64,000 nucleotides of DNA from Deltaproteobacteria bacterium (GTDB lineage: Bacteria; Desulfobacterota; GWC2-55-46; UBA9637): NCBI GenBank assembly GCA_016219285.1, contig JACRNJ010000032.1:21721-85720 (forward strand). Reading direction: 5' to 3'. Shown here piece after piece: positions 10,821-54,586 of the stretch (position 1 is the first letter of the stretch; the number at the start of each line of letters is the position of its first letter). The notes beneath the pieces were generated by a model. It ran no database searches. It saw only the letters and a program-made list of their open reading frames with translations, and was not told the DNA's origin. The position numbers were made by a program, and so were the translations under genes.

Positions 10821-11882
10821 ATGTCATTCAAAGATATTTTAGGACATGATAGAGAAATAAGCATTTTGAAGAAAGCCATTTCAAATAATAGAGTTGCTCA
10901 TTCATTTTTATTTGCTGGGCATGAAGGGATAGGCAAACGGCTTGTTGCCATTTCCGTTGCAAAGGCGCTTAACTGCTCTGCTGCAAACAAGAGCCCCTCC
11001 TTATCGCCATTTAACAAAACAGGATGTGATGGAAGTAATAATGATTTTTGCGGGGTTTGTCAAAACTGCAAGGATATAGAGGCCTCTTCATACAGCGATG
11101 TCTTTCTGATTGAGCCGAGAGAGCCGGAATCCAAGGGCGGGAAAATAGACCATATAGCCGGCACAATAAAGATTGATGCTGTGAGAGATGTTCAGCAAAG
11201 GCTGTCTTACAGGGCAGCAAGAGGCGGCAAAAAGGTGTGTATAGTAGACTGCGCCGAGAAGATGAATAAAGAGGCTCAGAATGCATTCCTTAAAACACTT
11301 GAAGAGCCACCTTCTGATTCCATTATAATATTGGTTGTTAGCGATGGCGGAGCCATTTTGCCGACAATAACTTCTCGCTGCCAAAGGATCAATTTTACCC
11401 CGCTGCCGCAAAATGTTATGCTTGACATAGTCGGAGAACGATTGGGGGCAGCAAAAGAAACTGCTGTGCTGCTTGCTTGTTTGAGTGGAGGCAGCATAGG
11501 AAAGGCATTAAACTTGGATATGGATACCATGCTTGAACAAAGGAAAAAGATTGTTGAAGTATTATCACGGTTATCTTTGGATGATGCAGAAGGAATGTTC
11601 AAAGCAGCTGAAAAGATATCAAAAGGAGAGAGGCCTGTAGAGTCTCTGGAGTTTCTCAAAATATGGTATAGAGATATTGCGATATTAAAGGAAGGTGTGG
11701 AGGATATGGTTGTAAATTCAGACCTCCTGCCTGTTTTAAGACAGCATATGGAGCGCCAAACTTTTTCAAGGCTTATATCCGATTTTCAAATGGTGCTAAA
11801 TGCCCAATCTGATATTATGCCGCCAAGGTATGCAAATAAACAATTGACTATTGAAAATTTGCTTATGCAGCTTGCCACATAA
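10821..11882 (+). CDS. holB: DNA polymerase III subunit delta-prime
   Basis: AAA+ clamp-loader N-terminus (AHSFLFAGHEGIGKRLVA), a zinc-module-like CxxC...CxxC segment, and a SRC-like TSRCQ motif. Follows tmk. Confidence 0.8.
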   Translation: MSFKDILGHDREISILKKAISNNRVAHSFLFAGHEGIGKRLVAISVAKALNCSAANKSPSLSPFNKTGCDGSNNDFCGVCQNCKDIEASSYSDVFLIEPREPESKGGKIDHIAGTIKIDAVRDVQQRLSYRAARGGKKVCIVDCAEKMNKEAQNAFLKTLEEPPSDSIIILVVSDGGAILPTITSRCQRINFTPLPQNVMLDIVGERLGAAKETAVLLACLSGGSIGKALNLDMDTMLEQRKKIVEVLSRLSLDDAEGMFKAAEKISKGERPVESLEFLKIWYRDIAILKEGVEDMVVNSDLLPVLRQHMERQTFSRLISDFQMVLNAQSDIMPPRYANKQLTIENLLMQLAT

Positions 11883-12075
11883 TGATTTACGAATTACGAT
11901 TTACGAATTACGATTTTAAATACTTCACCTTACTTGCAAATCATAAATCTATACACAGCGACATAAATAGTTGCGCATACAGAGCGTCAGAACAAAGCAG
12001 ACCGAGGAGCAACACAGGTATGCGAAGTTATGACGCTCTGTATAAAATCGTAAATCATAATGGAGGATTGATATA

Positions 12076-29996: not shown

Positions 29997-31298
29997 TTAT
30001 ACAAACCTTACATCCATTATATGCGTAGAGCACGAAATACACGGGTCATACGCCCTGACCAGTGTCTCAATATTTCTCACTATCTCATGCTTTGGCTTAT
30101 CTAAAATTGTCGGCACAAAACCCCTTAAATCTTCTTCTATCATGCGCAGGTTTTGGGCAGTCGGTATAATGCAGTTTGCATCTGTTACAATGCCGTTCTT
30201 GTCAATAGTATATTCATGATACAGGGTTCCCCTCGGCGCCTCAACAATGCCTACGCCTGTGCTGCGCCCGGAGTGCGGCAGCTTTGGTTTTTTTAATTCT
30301 TCTTTTTTAAGGCCGCTTGATAAGAGTTTATCTATCAGCTTTATGGCATCCTCTGTGCAGTGGAATGACTCCACAAGTTGTGCGGTATTATTCATAAACG
30401 GGTTGAAGCAGAGGGGAGTAAGGCCCAGTTCTTTTGCAGCCTTTTTTGCCTTTGGAGAAAGCTGTTTAAAGTTATTGCATACCCTCGCAAGGGCGCCTAC
30501 CATATAAATACCTTTCTTACTTTTTGTATGTTTTGCGGTGGAGTAAGGGACAATGCTCTCTTTTATAAGTTTTCTGTAGTCCCTTGGTTTAGTGCTGTAT
30601 TTCAGGTTTGAAACCATATTGCCGTCATAGAAGGCAAACTCCCCCTCTTGTTTCAGCGACAGATATTCTCTTTCTTTAGAATATTCCAATGTCTTAAAGC
30701 CTTTGAAAAGTTCAAGCGTGGCCTCCAAATCTTCAAATGAATCTTCAAGTTTTTTCTTCAAGGTTTTCAACTCGCTGATTTTCGGCAGATGGGCAACGCC
30801 TCCTGGAAAAAGGGAAATAGGATGTATGTGTCTCCCTGCAATGATTTCGCATATCTCATTGCCAAGTTTTTTAAGTCGCAGTCCGCGTGTTACAGCATCA
30901 GGATTGGTCTTTGTCAAAGGCACGACACTGCCAACCTTGAAAAAATCCGGCAAGACAAGAAAATAGAGATGAAGGATGTGGCTCTGGAGTATTTCTCCAT
31001 GAAAGGCGAGTTTTCGCAATAAAGTTGCCTGCTTTGAAATGGTTATGCCGAGGGCATCCTCAATCGCCTTGAGCGATGCCGATGTATGGCTTACAGCGCA
31101 TATCCCGCATATCCTTGACATGATATGCTGAGCCTCATCATACTTTCTGCCTCTGAGCATTGCCTCATAAAACCGTGGAGACTCCACAATCTCAAGCTTC
31201 AGCTCTTTTATGACGCCCTTCTTAATATCAATAACCACATTCCCGTGTCCTTCAACACGGGTGATGTGGTGGATGTCTATTTTAATGTTTTTGTGCAT
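29997..31298 (-). CDS. [NiFe] hydrogenase large subunit (group 3-like, cytoplasmic)
   Basis: L1 motif RICGICAVSH near the N-terminus and L2 motif DPCISCSTH near the C-terminus. Only 7 residues follow the His. Length 433 aa. Confidence 0.9.
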   Translation of the reverse strand: MHKNIKIDIHHITRVEGHGNVVIDIKKGVIKELKLEIVESPRFYEAMLRGRKYDEAQHIMSRICGICAVSHTSASLKAIEDALGITISKQATLLRKLAFHGEILQSHILHLYFLVLPDFFKVGSVVPLTKTNPDAVTRGLRLKKLGNEICEIIAGRHIHPISLFPGGVAHLPKISELKTLKKKLEDSFEDLEATLELFKGFKTLEYSKEREYLSLKQEGEFAFYDGNMVSNLKYSTKPRDYRKLIKESIVPYSTAKHTKSKKGIYMVGALARVCNNFKQLSPKAKKAAKELGLTPLCFNPFMNNTAQLVESFHCTEDAIKLIDKLLSSGLKKEELKKPKLPHSGRSTGVGIVEAPRGTLYHEYTIDKNGIVTDANCIIPTAQNLRMIEEDLRGFVPTILDKPKHEIVRNIETLVRAYDPCISCSTHIMDVRFV

Positions 31299-31362
31299 AA
31301 GAGGTTTATATGAGTATTGAATGACTCTGTTTGTTCTGCCTGTAAGGGTCTGAAGGCAGCCA

Positions 31363-31554
31363 TCATGTCTTTTCGTATGCCTTTATGAAATCGTCTCTTG
31401 AAATGCCAGCTTGTGTGCAAATTGTTCTTAATGTGGAAGCCTTTATTTTGGGATGATTTGGCATGGTCAAAGGAGTTTTACTACCATCAGGGTTCTCCCG
31501 CACCATTGAGATATGTTCTTTTTCACGAACGATACGGAAACCTAAGATTTCCAA
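31363..31554 (-). CDS. hicA: HicA-family toxin (mRNA interferase)
   Basis: 63 aa with the pattern GF...E..HI.M....DGSKTPLTMPNHPKIKASTLRTICTQAGIS, typical of HicA/YcfA. Immediately downstream of hicB. Confidence 0.6.
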   Translation of the reverse strand: MEILGFRIVREKEHISMVRENPDGSKTPLTMPNHPKIKASTLRTICTQAGISRDDFIKAYEKT

Positions 31555-31602
31555 TGCCTTTACTACTTTCCGCTTTGTGGCGTCAACTGGAAACTTAGGT
31601 AT

Positions 31603-31827
31603 TTAAGCATCTACCCCTGTTTCGGCAACAAATGCCTCAAGGATAGGTGGTTCAATATCAAGGCCTTCTTCTCCAAAAGTCTCTATATGAAAACGGATTG
31701 CGGATTTAACATCCGCCAACGCCTCTTCGTATGTATCACCTTGGCCAACTACAATACTCTTGATTCCTAAAGGATATGCAACATAGCCATCAGTATGTTT
31801 TTCCACTATTATTTTATACTGTTTCAT
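31603..31827 (-). CDS. hicB: HicB-family antitoxin
   Basis: 74 aa with YKIIVEKHTDGYVAYPLGIKSIVVGQGDTYEEALADVKSAI, typical of the HicB N-domain (UPF0150). Confidence 0.65.
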   Translation of the reverse strand: MKQYKIIVEKHTDGYVAYPLGIKSIVVGQGDTYEEALADVKSAIRFHIETFGEEGLDIEPPILEAFVAETGVDA

Positions 31828-31890
31828 ACCATCTCCTTTGATTTTCTTTTGATTGAATTATATAACAAAAAAATGATTTGTTCATCATTT

Positions 31891-32100
31891 TTAAATGTTG
31901 CCTAACGTGATTGGTCTTTGTGAAGTCCCGCCCTTGGCGGGATTTGGGCGAATGAAGTGAGTCACAAACACCCTGTTATCTGCCGTTGCAGGCAATCTTA
32001 AAGTAAATCCATCCAATTTTTCTTCAAATGCTAAAAAGCAAGACCTGACCCCCATGCCCTCTGCTGGCACAGATACCAATCTTTCGCGTGACAATTTAGA
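31891..32100 (-). pseudogene. vapC: C-terminal half of a PIN-domain (VapC) toxin gene, displaced by the RAYT element insertion
   Basis: ...LDGFTLRLPATADNRVFVTHFIRP resembles the PIN C-terminal D..IAATA...LVT.N..DF region. It lies immediately outside the left inverted repeat of the RAYT element, while the N-terminal half lies outside the right inverted repeat. Confidence 0.45.
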
Positions 32101-32101
32101 G

Positions 32102-32723
32102 GTAGGTTGGGTTGAGCAAAGCGAAACCCAACAATTCATTCATACCCTACATCCTCATCAAATTGAATCTCACAACCTGCCCCCCAATCGCTCTTGTAAA
32201 TGCCCTGTTTAACATAACGATGAAAACTTGAATATGCCCAGTCGCGTGGCAATGTTACCAGACTATGTTTAACAGGATTGTAATGGATGTAATTACAATG
32301 CGCCTCAAAATCTTTCTCGTCTCTAATCTGATGCTCCCAAAACCGCCTCTGCCAAACCGCTTGTTCTCCCTTACTTAATTTTGAGGCAGATCTAAAGCCT
32401 TTATATCCATCCTGACATTGTCTGCTAAAATAGCTTTTTATAAGCCCCCATCGCAGAGAAAAATCATTATCGTTGTGCGGCAATGTCCAGATACAGTGAA
32501 TATGATCGGGCAGCAAAACAAATGCGTCAATCCGAAAGGTGTGTCTGTTGATAACATACTGAAACGCTTCTTTTATCAACCGTATGTTTGCTTCATGGCA
32601 TAAAATCCTTTTCCTCCCGTGCGTTACCACCGTAAAGAAAAATGCCGCCCCTTTTGCCTTTGACCTGCGATAACGCATTGCTTTTTATGATTATGTTGGG
32701 TTTCGTTCCTCAACCCAACCTAC
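32102..32723. mobile_element. RAYT (REP-associated tyrosine transposase) unit bounded by hairpin inverted repeats
   Basis: Left end is gtaggttgggttgagcaaagcgaaacccaaca. Right end is tgttgggtttcgttcctcaacccaacctac, its inverse, and each end is an 8-bp-stem hairpin. The unit encloses one transposase gene. Confidence 0.8.
32136..32678 (-). CDS. REP-associated tyrosine transposase (IS200/IS605 TnpA-like, Y1 HUH family)
   Basis: HuH motif LPDHIHCIW and catalytic Tyr region NYIHYNPVKH. Length 180 aa, which is longer than IS200 TnpA and typical of RAYTs. Confidence 0.8.
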   Translation of the reverse strand: MRYRRSKAKGAAFFFTVVTHGRKRILCHEANIRLIKEAFQYVINRHTFRIDAFVLLPDHIHCIWTLPHNDNDFSLRWGLIKSYFSRQCQDGYKGFRSASKLSKGEQAVWQRRFWEHQIRDEKDFEAHCNYIHYNPVKHSLVTLPRDWAYSSFHRYVKQGIYKSDWGAGCEIQFDEDVGYE

Positions 32724-32898
32724 CAACTTCAGTAAGGGTTATGACAGAAGAAAAAGCGCTCAATCTCTCTGACTGAAAAGAATCAACCACTTCTTTGGCA
32801 ATTGATCCAAACTGAGGATTAGCTTCGATGTAATAAATGATGGGCGCTGTATCTATGAAAATAGTATTTATTTGATCAAGTTCATCCGAGAGGGTCAT
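32710..32898 (-). pseudogene. vapC: N-terminal half of PIN-domain (VapC) toxin gene truncated at the RAYT element boundary
   Basis: IFIDTAPIIYYIE has the first PIN Asp and ITLTEV has the second acidic residue. The ORF ends inside the right inverted repeat of the RAYT unit. Confidence 0.5.
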
Positions 32899-33119
32899 AT
32901 CCGATCCTCTCTCAAACGATTAACATACTCTTGAGCATCTTCACCTTTCCATAACCCTTTCCCAAGGCCATAGAGTTTATTCCAGTCAAGTTCCTTTTTC
33001 ATAGCAAGTCCTGTCTTGCCTAATTGATGAACAAGCCTTTCTACTAATTTTAACTGTTCCTGAGGCGTAAGTTTTCCTATCTCTTTTCCAATCTTTTCTA
33101 AGGTAACTCCTTTTTTCAT
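32895..33119 (-). CDS. putative antitoxin partner of the disrupted PIN toxin
   Basis: 74 aa, 4-nt overlap with the vapC fragment, positioned upstream as antitoxins usually are. Family not recognised with confidence. Confidence 0.35.
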   Translation of the reverse strand: MKKGVTLEKIGKEIGKLTPQEQLKLVERLVHQLGKTGLAMKKELDWNKLYGLGKGLWKGEDAQEYVNRLREDRI

Positions 33120-33577
33120 TTTAACCCCCTTTCTTTAATTTATTATCATTCTCCAAGGTAAACAAATATGTCTGTATTATAATATCAACACAAAAGTTTT
33201 GCTATATTATTAAAGCGCCCCAAAAATAGATATTGATTTTTTGAGAAACCTGCAAGTCCTTGACAGACGTTTCACCTGTCAAGGGCAAGTTGGCTGTTAG
33301 ACAACACACCCCTAAATCCCCTCTCGAGAGGGGACTAAAGGGGCGTGTTATTTACAACGAGCCCTCCCCCTTTATCCCCCTCATGGAGGGGGACAGGGGG
33401 AGGATACGGTGAGGAGCAAAGATGTGCCGATAACGAAGTATGGCAGGCAAATCGCAGGTTTGTAAAATAGCGAGGTTTTTAATCGCTATTTTACGGAAGT
33501 GCTTAATGGTGTCTGACGTGTTCATAGGCGAATAATTCGCTTTTTTATTTGGGAACAGTCTCCTTGGAAGTCTTTTC

Positions 33578-34342
33578 TCATTTGCCTTCCCCATGCCTCT
33601 CCCACCCTCCATACAAATCAAATTTGTTTACTACCCCTTCTGCTGTCAATCCGTATCGTTTCAAGGTTTCCTCATGCGCCTCTATATTCGGGTCATCAAC
33701 CAGTCCTCTACATCCCCAGCATACACAGCCGTAGGTAACACATATTGCGGAGCAGCCTGCGCGTGTAACCGGGCCCACGCATGTCATGCCTTTTTCAAAT
33801 ACACAGATATTTCCTGCCATCTTGCAGTCAACACATACAGGGTAATTGGGTATTTCCGGTTTTTTGCCAAGAAGCAGAGACTTGAGCACATCCAGGAATT
33901 CTGATTTTGTTATGGGACAGCCGTGGATGTAGTAGTCTACAGGGATTACAGCATCAATCGGCCTTGCAGGTATGGTATCAAGGTGTTTGTATTTTTTAGC
34001 CTTGTCGCCATAAACGACTCTTTGCACCTCTTCCATGGGGAATCTATTTTTAAGGCAATTCAGCCCTCCGGTTGCAGAACATGCGCCTAAGGCCACAATA
34101 ATCTTTGCCTTTTCCCGTATCTTTTTAACCTCTTCTATCTCATGGTTTCTGCTAACGCTTCCTTCAATGAAGGCAATGTCATAGTCATCCCGTTTTTCAT
34201 CAATGGCCTCTCTGAAGTTTACGATGTCAACAAGGCTTAATATATCGGGGAGTTCGTCCTCGCATGCAAGGACCTGAAGCTGGCAGCCTTCACAGCAGGT
34301 GAAGGAGAAAAAGGCGAACTTGGGTTTGTGTTTGGTTTTCAT
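33578..34342 (-). CDS. [NiFe] hydrogenase small subunit (group 3-like, no Tat signal)
   Basis: N-terminal proximal-cluster motif FTCCEGCQLQV, as in group 3 delta/MvhG/FrhG small subunits. There are additional C-terminal Cys clusters. No twin-arginine leader is present. Confidence 0.85.
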   Translation of the reverse strand: MKTKHKPKFAFFSFTCCEGCQLQVLACEDELPDILSLVDIVNFREAIDEKRDDYDIAFIEGSVSRNHEIEEVKKIREKAKIIVALGACSATGGLNCLKNRFPMEEVQRVVYGDKAKKYKHLDTIPARPIDAVIPVDYYIHGCPITKSEFLDVLKSLLLGKKPEIPNYPVCVDCKMAGNICVFEKGMTCVGPVTRAGCSAICVTYGCVCWGCRGLVDDPNIEAHEETLKRYGLTAEGVVNKFDLYGGWERHGEGK

Positions 34343-38506: not shown

Positions 38507-38707
38507 TTGTCCCTCGCTGCTCAAATCCTCGCCGCCAAAAAGCAACACACCCCTCAATCCCCTCTTGATAGAGGGGAATTACCCAACGCCGATACCTCCG
38601 CCTTTGAGCGTCAGATTGATGAAATGGTTTATAAACTCTACGACCTCACACCGGAGGAGATTGCAATTGTGGAGGGGTTGGATATTGATGTTGACAAATT
38701 ACAATAA
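38507..38707 (+). pseudogene. C-terminal tail remnant of a DNA methyltransferase/restriction-modification type gene
   Basis: ERQIDEMVYKLYDLTPEEIAIVEG is the conserved C-terminal helix of many N6-adenine methyltransferase and type IIG restriction-modification proteins. Only about 66 aa are present. Confidence 0.35.
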
Positions 38708-40164: not shown

Positions 40165-41376
40165 TTGAAGAGAATATACCTTGATAACAATGCAACAACA
40201 CCAATCCACCCTGAGGTTTTTGATGCGATGCTTCCATATCTGAAACATGAATTTGGAAATCCATCCAGCATCCATTGGGCAGGGAGGAATCCCAGAAGGG
40301 TTGTTGATGATGCGAGAGAGAAAGTGACGAAGCTTCTCAATTGTGATGCAAATGAAATCATTTTCACAAGCTGCGGGTCAGAAAGTAACAATCTTGCTAT
40401 AAAGGGAGTTGCCGAATCAAAAAAAGATAAAGGCAACCATATTATTACTACTAAAGTGGAGCATCCAGCCGTTTTGAGTACTTGCAAATACCTTGCAAAA
40501 AACGGTTTTGATGTAACCTTTCTTGATGTTGATAATCATGGCATGCTGGATTTAGACCAGCTTAAAAAGGCAATAACTCCAAAGACAATACTTATTACGA
40601 TAATGTTTTCAAATAATGAGACGGGAGTGATATTTCCCATAGAGGAGATAGGCAAGATTGCAAAAGAGCATAATATTCCTTTCCATACCGATGCTGTTCA
40701 GGGTGTGGGAAAGGTTCCTATAGATGTAAAGAAAATGAATGTAGACCTGTTGACGCTTTCAGGCCATAAGCTCTATGCGCCAAAGGGGATTGGCGCACTC
40801 TATGTCAAAAGAGGTGTAAGGTTGGTGCCATTAATTCATGGCGGTCATCAGGAGCGGAACAGAAGGGGCGGCACAGAAAATGTCGCCGGTATTGTTGCAC
40901 TTGGAAAGGCGTGCGAGATTGCCGCCAGAGACATGGAGCAAGAGATAAAACATATTACAGCTTTAAGAGACAGACTTGAAAAAGGACTGATGCAAAGGGT
41001 AACGCATGTGCGGCTTAATGGCCATCCAATAGAGAGGATTCCTAACACGGTAAACCTAAGTTTTGAATTTGCAGAGGGAGAGTCGCTGCTTTTAAACCTT
41101 GATATGAAGGGGATAGCTGCATCGTCTGGTTCGGCATGCACATCCGGAACATTGGAGCCGTCCCATGTGCTTGTGGCTATGGGTGTTCCGATGGAGGCAT
41201 CTCACAGTTCTGTGCGATTTAGCCTTGGGCGTGGGAATACGATAGAGGATATTGACTATGTTATAGATGTCTTGCCGGCAATGGTGGAAAGGATGAGGAG
41301 CATGTCGCCGCTTTATTCTACGATTACCGGAAAAGGTGAGAATATAACGTTCAGTGAAAGCAATTGCAGCCATTAA
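40165..41376 (+). CDS. iscS: cysteine desulfurase IscS/NifS
   Basis: PLP Lys motif SGHKLYAPKGIGALYV and active-site Cys loop SSGSACTSG. Length 403 aa. Confidence 0.9.
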   Translation: MKRIYLDNNATTPIHPEVFDAMLPYLKHEFGNPSSIHWAGRNPRRVVDDAREKVTKLLNCDANEIIFTSCGSESNNLAIKGVAESKKDKGNHIITTKVEHPAVLSTCKYLAKNGFDVTFLDVDNHGMLDLDQLKKAITPKTILITIMFSNNETGVIFPIEEIGKIAKEHNIPFHTDAVQGVGKVPIDVKKMNVDLLTLSGHKLYAPKGIGALYVKRGVRLVPLIHGGHQERNRRGGTENVAGIVALGKACEIAARDMEQEIKHITALRDRLEKGLMQRVTHVRLNGHPIERIPNTVNLSFEFAEGESLLLNLDMKGIAASSGSACTSGTLEPSHVLVAMGVPMEASHSSVRFSLGRGNTIEDIDYVIDVLPAMVERMRSMSPLYSTITGKGENITFSESNCSH

Positions 41377-41509
41377 GAAAGATTCAAGATTTAAGATACA
41401 AGATTTAAGATACAAGATGCAATATGCAAGATTCAATATTTATAATTATTTTTGGCTGCAATCTGAAACTTGTAACTTGCAACCATATTCATTGAAAGGA
41501 GATTGAGAT
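41377..41509. repeat. intergenic tandem simple repeat (aagatttaagatacaagat units) plus tgcaa-type tail
   Basis: gattcaagatttaagatacaagatttaagatacaagatgcaatatgcaagattcaa...ctgcaatctgaaacttgtaacttgcaacc. Confidence 0.8.
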
Positions 41510-53397: not shown

Positions 53398-54513
53398 TCA
53401 GCCTTTCGCCTGCCTTTCAGGTATTATCCAGATACTCTCTTTTTTCAAAGATACTGTTATGGTTTTGCCTTTGCTGAGTTTAAGCTTTCTATATGCGAAG
53501 TTTGGGATTTCTATCTTAATGGTTGCGTCTCTGTCTCTTACCTTAAAATAAATGGTATGGCTCGCCCCTTTACCAAGGGTTGTCAATACCTCGCCTTCCA
53601 ACAGATTATCCTGCACCTTTTTGTCTATCGGCTTGTCGGGTCTTATAATCATAATCTCTTCAGGCCTTATTCCAAATGTCACCTTTTCTCCAACAGTCAT
53701 GCGCTGCTCTTCATGGTGGAGCAATGCCTTAATCTCTCCAATATCGGGGTTTTCTATTGCCACTGCTTTTTCATACAGAGAAACAATTATGCCGCTAAAG
53801 ATATTCCTTGCCCCCAAAAACCTTGCGACATTTTTAGTCTTTGGCTTATAAAATACATCTTCCCTTGCGCCGAACTGTTCAAGCCTGCCGTTGTTTATTA
53901 TGGCTATATTTTCCCCCATAACAAATGACTCCTCAAGGTCGTGGGTAACAAAGAGTGTTGTTATCGGGTATTTCTGATGTATGAGCAACAGGTCTGCCCT
54001 GAGCTTTTCCCTGACCTGATAGTCAAGGGCTGAAAACGGTTCATCCAGAAGCAGTATACTTGGTTCTGCTGCAAGCGTTCTTGCAAGGGCTGCCCTCTGT
54101 TTTTGCCCGCCCGACAGCTCCTTTGGAAATCTGTGTTCAAGCCCGCCAAGCCGCATGAGGTCAAGAAGTTCTTCTACTTTTGTCTTGCTCTTATTTTTAG
54201 GTTCATGGCTTATGCCGTAAGCTATATTCTCAAAAACAGTCATGTGCGGGAAAAGGGCATAATCCTGAAAAAGATAGCCTATCTTTCTCTCTCTTATGGG
54301 AATATTTATTCCGGTTGCAGAATTAAAAATTTCCCTGCCTTCAATTCTCACAAAACCTTCATCAGGTTTTATAATGCCAGAGATTAAATTTAACAAGAGG
54401 CTCTTGCCGGCGCCTGATGGGCCAAACACAACAGCCATGTTTTCCTCAATGGAAAACGCTATATCAATTGAAAAGTCGCGGAAATGCTTTTTGAGATGAA
54501 AGGAAAGAGACAT
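53398..54513 (-). CDS. modC: molybdate/tungstate ABC transporter ATP-binding protein with C-terminal TOBE/Mop domain
   Basis: Walker A GPSGAGKS and signature LSGGQKQRAALAR, with a TOBE-like C-terminal domain of about 130 aa. Operon with modB and modA. Confidence 0.85.
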   Translation of the reverse strand: MSLSFHLKKHFRDFSIDIAFSIEENMAVVFGPSGAGKSLLLNLISGIIKPDEGFVRIEGREIFNSATGINIPIRERKIGYLFQDYALFPHMTVFENIAYGISHEPKNKSKTKVEELLDLMRLGGLEHRFPKELSGGQKQRAALARTLAAEPSILLLDEPFSALDYQVREKLRADLLLIHQKYPITTLFVTHDLEESFVMGENIAIINNGRLEQFGAREDVFYKPKTKNVARFLGARNIFSGIIVSLYEKAVAIENPDIGEIKALLHHEEQRMTVGEKVTFGIRPEEIMIIRPDKPIDKKVQDNLLEGEVLTTLGKGASHTIYFKVRDRDATIKIEIPNFAYRKLKLSKGKTITVSLKKESIWIIPERQAKG

Positions 54514-54586
54514 AAAAAAATTGTAGATTTACGAATTACGAATTACGATTTAAAATCTAAAATCATAAATCTAAAATAGTAAATCC
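54514..54586. repeat. intergenic tandem simple repeat (attacga / aaatcta units)
   Basis: gtagatttacgaattacgaattacgatttaaaatctaaaatcataaatctaaaatagtaaatc. Confidence 0.8.

Follow-up and report, generated by a model that had tools for sequence, protein, structure and literature searches.

Genes for REP-associated tyrosine transposases (RAYTs, or TnpAREP) that are flanked by REPs have been described as REPtrons (Nunvar 2010, PMC2817692; Bertels & Rainey 2011, PMC3116915; Corneloup 2021, PMC8266576). TnpAREP cleaves at CT or CA beside the REPs, guided by GTAG (PMC8266576). RAYT genes are reported to occur as a rule in one copy and to lack, as it appears, the ability to copy themselves, and the traits that most resemble those of ISs (duplicates, plasmid copies) are reported for RAYT Groups 1 and 6 (PMC5581495). 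Here we describe an ordinary RAYT/REP unit (REPtron) that abuts a decayed toxin-antitoxin module, and compare the locus with REPtrons, with elements of the IS200/IS605 type such as IS608, and with VapBC modules.

The window analysed is a stretch of 64,000 nucleotides (64 kb) of a MAG contig, JACRNJ010000032.1, and the features under discussion are collected in Table 1. Genes for the small and large subunits of a [NiFe] hydrogenase, which as a rule are adjacent, stand on either side of an island of ~2.3 kb (31363-33570), on the same strand and in operon order (small subunit 33578-34342, PF01058; large subunit 29997-31298, PF00374). The island holds REP-like repeats, an antitoxin gene, the stump of a PIN toxin gene, the RAYT unit and a hicBA module.

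Table 1. Features of the locus, and other GTAG-headed REPs, in coordinates of the 64-kb window
Feature	Position	Strand	Remarks
Antitoxin gene	32895..33119	-	74 aa, intact
PIN/VapC toxin stump	32725..32898	-	codons 1-58; family norm 148 aa
62-aa ORF containing the PIN stump	32898..32710	-	PIN codons, 4 REP-encoded codons and stop
Right REP, upstream of RAYT	32694..32724	-	GGTAG head and hairpin GTTGGGTT..AACCCAAC
RAYT gene	32136..32678	-	180 aa, apparently intact
Left REP, downstream of RAYT	32101..32133	+	GGTAGG begins at 32101; inverted with respect to the right REP
Whole REP-RAYT-REP unit	32101..32724	-	624 bp, block common to other contigs
ORF82	32139..31891	-	82 aa
Segment between RAYT unit and hicB promoter	31895..32100	n/a	~205 bp, probably non-coding
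hicB-hicA module including promoter-like site	31363..31893	-	genes 31827..31363; far boundary of the ~205-bp segment
Other GTAG-headed REPs in the window	7066, 7104, 23150, 49400, 49439; 20321, 22722, 24896, 37429, 45207; 14552, 45247		

The transposase is a member of the RAYT clade. It covers positions 1-146 of the 146 in NCBIfam NF047646, the REP_Tyr_transpos equivalog, at 193.3 bits (cutoff 80); it also matches Pfam Y1_Tnp, and its 7971 homologues are mostly 180 aa in length. The likeness to a REPtron lies both in this Y1 HUH enzyme, which is intact and under purifying selection, and in its setting between two inverted REPs, each of which carries the GTAG head 5' of its hairpin. None of these GTAG-headed hairpins is expected by chance, and the DNA fold is -7.2 kcal/mol (z -2.7) for the right REP and -8.0 kcal/mol (z -4.2) for the left. 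Between the RAYT of the window and the copy on metagenome contig L096, 17 codon changes are synonymous and 2 are non-synonymous; the gene has therefore remained under purifying selection after the divergence of the two copies, which is not very recent. In contrast with the REPtrons described, the cognate REP was not seen dispersed: no copies beyond the flanking pair were found in the 64-kb window or in the 8.5-kb loci of the L097 type. In addition, the unit ends on one side within a coding sequence, and units almost identical to it occupy unrelated loci in other contigs. The unit is in sum more IS-like than the single-copy picture of RAYTs as a family (PMC5581495).

Several further observations were made on the REPs. 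The window is rich in several other GTAG-headed REP families, such as GTAGGGTGGGCTGCGCCCACC and GTAGTYTGCCSATTTATSGGCG; their difference from the REP that flanks the RAYT implies that other RAYTs are present elsewhere in the genome. The hairpin GTAGGTTGGGTTGAG..AAACCCAAC is near-invariant beside RAYTs of 50-72% protein identity (L108-L146), at loci assigned to Planctomycetota, Cyanobacteria, Poribacteria, Desulfobacterota and Hyphomicrobium, and it clusters at some of them, as in Prochloron, where locus L127 contains 11 matches to the pattern. When genome contigs were scanned with the RAYT the best match had 72% identity, and a scan of viral contigs for the REP detected four copies, all of them solitary, and no RAYT. 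A pair of C-rich hairpins characterizes an intergenic repeat (33286-33498, and again at 38543-38574) that recurs in the window and shares 73-97% identity with contigs of the L097 type (L097 6765-6982); one of its hairpins gave a sub-threshold match to Rfam whalefall-1 (24.5 bits, gathering score 37). Tandem motifs that are rich in A/T and have a 7-nt period, of the AAGATKC and TTACGAA types, also occupy intergenic positions (2616-2675 and 41362-41456; 11862-11935 and 54511-54570).

As in VapBC modules, the gene for a small antitoxin runs into that for a PIN toxin (the shared ATGA provides the stop of the one and the start of the other), and full-length members of the toxin family match Pfam PIN; the locus differs from such modules in that the toxin keeps 58 of its 148 codons, and is a pseudogene with an orphan antitoxin. 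The antitoxin (MBI5327651.1, encoded on a MAG contig of 96,761 bp) is intact, as the initial annotation had proposed. Its matches to TIGR02574 / Unstab_antitox are weak, but residues 1-74 align end to end, at a mean identity of 68%, with the product of the gene upstream of PIN in 47 of 80 metagenome loci that encode the N-terminal part of the toxin, and homology to the gene in this position extends to 78 of the 80; the antitoxin lies directly upstream of the toxin, as in VapBC.

The toxin fragment had also been recognized from the sequence, together with the ending of its reading frame inside the right repeat, and both points are borne out. Residues 1-58 of the stump match the protein profile of 67 intact homologues at E 1.2e-29, and at positions 1-58 only, while at the DNA level the stump matches positions 1-173 of the family profile (E 7.4e-46); the last four codons of the 62-aa ORF (GRLG) and its stop come from the right REP. 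The stump alone did not reach the Pfam PIN threshold. For a full-length homologue, once its frameshift is corrected, the match to Pfam PIN reaches 1.1e-13 and takes in profile positions 1-119 of 120. Judged by these matches, the N-terminal part is a real vapC-type fragment comprising 58 of 148 codons, and thus less than half of the gene. Colinearity over ~148 codons was observed for 69 of the 80 loci, of which two contain internal stops, leaving 67 that are clean and full-length. The family length of 148 aa, made up of the 58 codons present and 90 that are missing, does not agree with the proposal that halves of 62 and about 65 aa add up to a normal PIN protein.

With only 58 of 148 toxin codons left, the toxin lacks the latter half of its catalytic site. 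Compared with what we take to be the standard placement of acidic residues in PIN domains, the stump keeps two of the four (D16 and E57), and the segment of the family with the DAIQ and TND motifs, which are presumed to hold catalytic residues, is absent from the window. On this reading the product cannot act as a nuclease. A word-indexed protein search with the N-terminal part yielded 55 relatives, all of <=101 aa, a length distribution that is biased and does not reflect biology. The idea that the PIN family is recurrently broken at TLTEV was rejected because this list of short proteins is biased, intact 148-aa genes being the norm at the DNA level, where 67 of the 80 loci retrieved are colinear without internal stops.

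Decay is frequent in the family, with frameshifts, internal stops and deletions in L001, L003/L016, L040 and L063/64. The copy in L001 (366-765) has an internal deletion from codon 55, that in L003 (4001-4443) has a frameshift in an A-run which is present in 14 contigs, and the copies in L063/L064 contain two in-frame stops. A further copy, in L002 (629-898), is truncated within ~3 nt of the breakpoint in the window and has no RAYT. None of the 80 other PIN loci has a RAYT or hicB within 3 kb, and the association is therefore specific to this genome.

The junction between toxin and unit is exact. In intact homologues ...ACTGAAGTT continues as CTGCCTAAGCC, whereas in the window ...ACTGAAGTT continues as GGTAGGTTGGG; the PIN homology ends at 32725, and the outer base of the right REP is 32724. 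The claim of a vapC-type PIN gene whose interruption coincides exactly with the end of the REP-RAYT-REP unit therefore holds. The remainder of the toxin does not lie on the other side of the unit, where the initial annotation had placed a PIN C-half directly outside the left repeat. With a full-length PIN homologue as query, tblastn found no C-terminal part in 31700-32140 or in the rest of the 64 kb. The same outcome was obtained when the six frames of the 64 kb were searched with profiles of the whole protein and of the C-terminal part (hmmsearch --max), and when the 64 kb, including 31700-32140, was searched with a DNA profile of the C-terminal part (nhmmer --max). By all of these approaches the 3' 270 bp (90 codons) of the toxin gene are absent from the window, and vapC is truncated rather than cleanly bisected.

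The reading frame on the far side of the unit, ORF82, provides no substitute for the missing part. The joining of the stump to ORF82 in silico, which had been suggested as a check of the bisection, gave a protein with no Pfam PIN match, an outcome against bisection, and ORF82 on its own matches no family in Pfam or NCBIfam. The motif LPATADNRVFVTHF, to which the supposed C-half had been tied, lies within ORF82 ~35 codons from the REP, and thus does not adjoin it as had been proposed. When the 69 residues unique to ORF82 were compared by phmmer with 1.84 billion representatives, the single match was a 962-aa protein of seven tandem repeats, which we read as an EF-hand repeat protein; a relationship between the two was rejected, as the match was judged to be a repeat-inflated chance match. 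ORF82 should not be annotated as a gene. Most of it falls within the ~205-bp segment 31895-32100, which also contains a GC hairpin (31925-31943); a search of 31300-33600 with Rfam found nothing in this segment, no repeat copy of it occurs elsewhere in the window, and comparison of the 273-bp left flank with 189 fetched loci by blastn and tblastx matched only contigs identical to the window.

The hicBA module that follows was identified by matches to HicA_toxin (3.9e-11) and HicB_lk_antitox (1.5e-3), and hicB is preceded by a palindrome and a promoter-like TGAACA-16-TATAAT at 31857-31884. In the region 31363-31606 the HicA domain match begins ~16 codons upstream of the sole canonical start, a TTG at 31554. 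Since there is no ATG, GTG or TTG between the stop of hicB and this point, hicA may be N-terminally damaged or may use an unusual start codon.

The unit recurs as a block at other loci. A RAYT that is 98.9% identical in protein is present in many metagenome contigs (L096-L104), where the unit has a DUF4139 gene on one side and an unrelated gene of 221 aa on the other, and blastn of the window against these contigs showed 94-96% DNA identity over exactly 32726..32101/2, with flanks that lack similarity. The possibility that this 221-aa gene downstream of the RAYT (L096) is the same as a 221-aa gene downstream of PIN (L003) was considered and rejected; the two are unrelated. The same limits, GGTAGG...CCTACC, also bound an 89%-identical RAYT beside rplS/rnhB (L008) and a 72%-identical RAYT (L010), and the unit keeps its boundaries in four contexts that are unrelated to one another (the window, L008, L010 and L096-L104). 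The dinucleotide TT lies just outside (G)GTAGG in the window, L008, L010 and L096/L097, and is absent in more distant units. The junctions themselves, CCTACC/T in the window and L008, CCTAC/T in L097 and C/A in L096 and L010 (the slash marking the junction), appear compatible with cleavage by TnpAREP. The initial annotation had proposed that the RAYT unit itself transposes, and not only its REPs. The first part of that proposal gains from the occurrence of a discrete block at unrelated loci, which gives a modest hint, at the level of sequence, that the REP-RAYT-REP block may be mobile, or exchanged, as a unit. The contrast with the REPs does not stand: beyond the pair that flanks the gene, the 64 kb contain no copy of the REP cognate to this RAYT, and the abundant REPs belong to other families.

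Similarity to the IS200/IS605 elements comprises a HUH Y1 enzyme related to theirs, hairpins that lie subterminally at either end, and the lack of a target-site duplication at the junctions; the TT 5' of one end in the four contexts may add to it, although more distant units lack this motif. In contrast with these elements, the protein in the window is a RAYT equivalog (193 bits, compared with 22 bits for the IS200 profile, which is below the cutoff of 55), and the ends of the unit are inverted copies of one REP rather than distinct left and right ends. Furthermore, removal of the unit does not restore the target gene: the contiguous target that is typical of IS200/IS605 insertions is not recovered, as the left flank lacks PIN homology.

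We consider it probable that the locus represents a decayed toxin-antitoxin module beside a canonical REP-RAYT-REP unit, and that an event at a REP end joined the unit to codon 58 of vapC. According to this proposal the unit would move, or be exchanged, as a block delimited by GGTAGG...CCTACC; the REP-end event through which it became joined to codon 58 could have been recombination at the REP, or cleavage and joining of single strands by the RAYT; and the 3' 270 bp of the toxin gene may have disappeared on that occasion, or afterwards through a deletion adjoining the unit. The outcome would be the arrangement of orphan antitoxin, toxin stump, RAYT unit, ~205-bp segment and hicBA module. We infer both that the arrival of the unit caused the truncation of vapC and the enzymatic mechanism by which it did so. 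It should be emphasized that the typically single-copy status of RAYTs, and their apparent inability to copy themselves (PMC5581495), make transposase-driven movement of the unit less likely a priori, and that, in view of the break in L002, within ~3 nt of the same site and without a RAYT, the site may be fragile for another reason.

It could be argued, more boldly, that the clade of 180-aa RAYTs is still an autonomous IS-like element rather than an immobile gene that has been domesticated, in which the 624-bp block is cut and pasted at GGTAGG...CCTACC, can enter coding sequence and causes adjacent deletions. We advance this only tentatively, at somewhat less than even chances. If it were true, this activity would have left its traces both in the copy in L096-L104 and at the exact REP/PIN junction, and the lack of dispersed cognate REPs would indicate that the RAYT has yet to found a REPIN population.

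The main rival, a different order of events in which the island was stacked from selfish modules, is less likely but of appreciable probability. In one version an unrelated deletion, or the arrival of hicBA and the 205-bp segment, truncated the PIN gene and the RAYT unit was inserted later; in the other the RAYT unit was resident first, and the antitoxin-PIN cassette recombined in beside it, breaking at the REP. The presence of two toxin-antitoxin modules, REP-like repeats and a RAYT unit between the hydrogenase subunit genes is consistent with such stacking, as are the frequent decay of the PIN family, the truncation in L002 and a left flank that is unrelated to PIN. Such a history, however, demands a coincidence, since an independent truncation would have had to hit precisely the REP's outermost base, and none of the fetched loci shows the stump joined to any sequence other than the REP.

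The integrity of the contig bears on a further alternative. The REP is where Logan contigs that match the window at 100% identity break off (L007 begins with GTAG at 32723; L105 and L107 begin at 32153), and among the contigs found none crosses the PIN/REP junction independently, so the MAG contig is the sole source of this junction. Every contig that encodes the HicB or the RAYT of the window is a piece of its sequence at 100% identity, and look-ups for exact copies of four proteins (RAYT, HicB, antitoxin, hydrogenase small subunit) yielded such identical fragments or nothing at all. The fetched loci include no empty site or RAYT-free allele, and the insertion, which the initial annotation had called datable, therefore offers nothing that can be dated. 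A solitary REP or REPIN within the PIN gene, from which the assembler jumped to the REP flanking the RAYT and so hid the C-half, would explain both why the Logan contigs start at the REP and why the stump protein is absent from the protein collection. We regard this artefact as improbable. A chimera at the REP is unlikely because the hydrogenase subunit genes bracket the island in operon order and on the same strand, an arrangement that a chimera would reproduce only by luck; the 64 kb contain no further copy of the RAYT's REP, and the PIN C-terminal part is missing from the whole window. Finally, a clean simple insertion between codons 58 and 59 that retained both halves of vapC, for which the exact right junction and the 82-aa frame open from the left REP outward might have spoken, is very improbable and, for the sequence analysed here, clean bisection is excluded, given that the joined protein fails Pfam PIN, that positions 59-148 cannot be traced in the window by profiles or tblastn, that ORF82 has no family or credible homologue, and that the lengths fail, 90 aa being needed.

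For annotation, the consequence of the favoured reading, a REPtron beside a decayed toxin-antitoxin module, is that vapC should be labelled a pseudogene stump, its antitoxin an orphan and ORF82 no gene. The sequences GGTAGG...CCTACC are candidate ends of the unit. The interest of the locus is modest, and arises only because RAYT genes are usually considered to be immobile: an end of the unit inside a gene, together with a near-identical twin at an unrelated locus, provides a small piece of evidence that some REP-RAYT-REP blocks may move, or be exchanged, as units.
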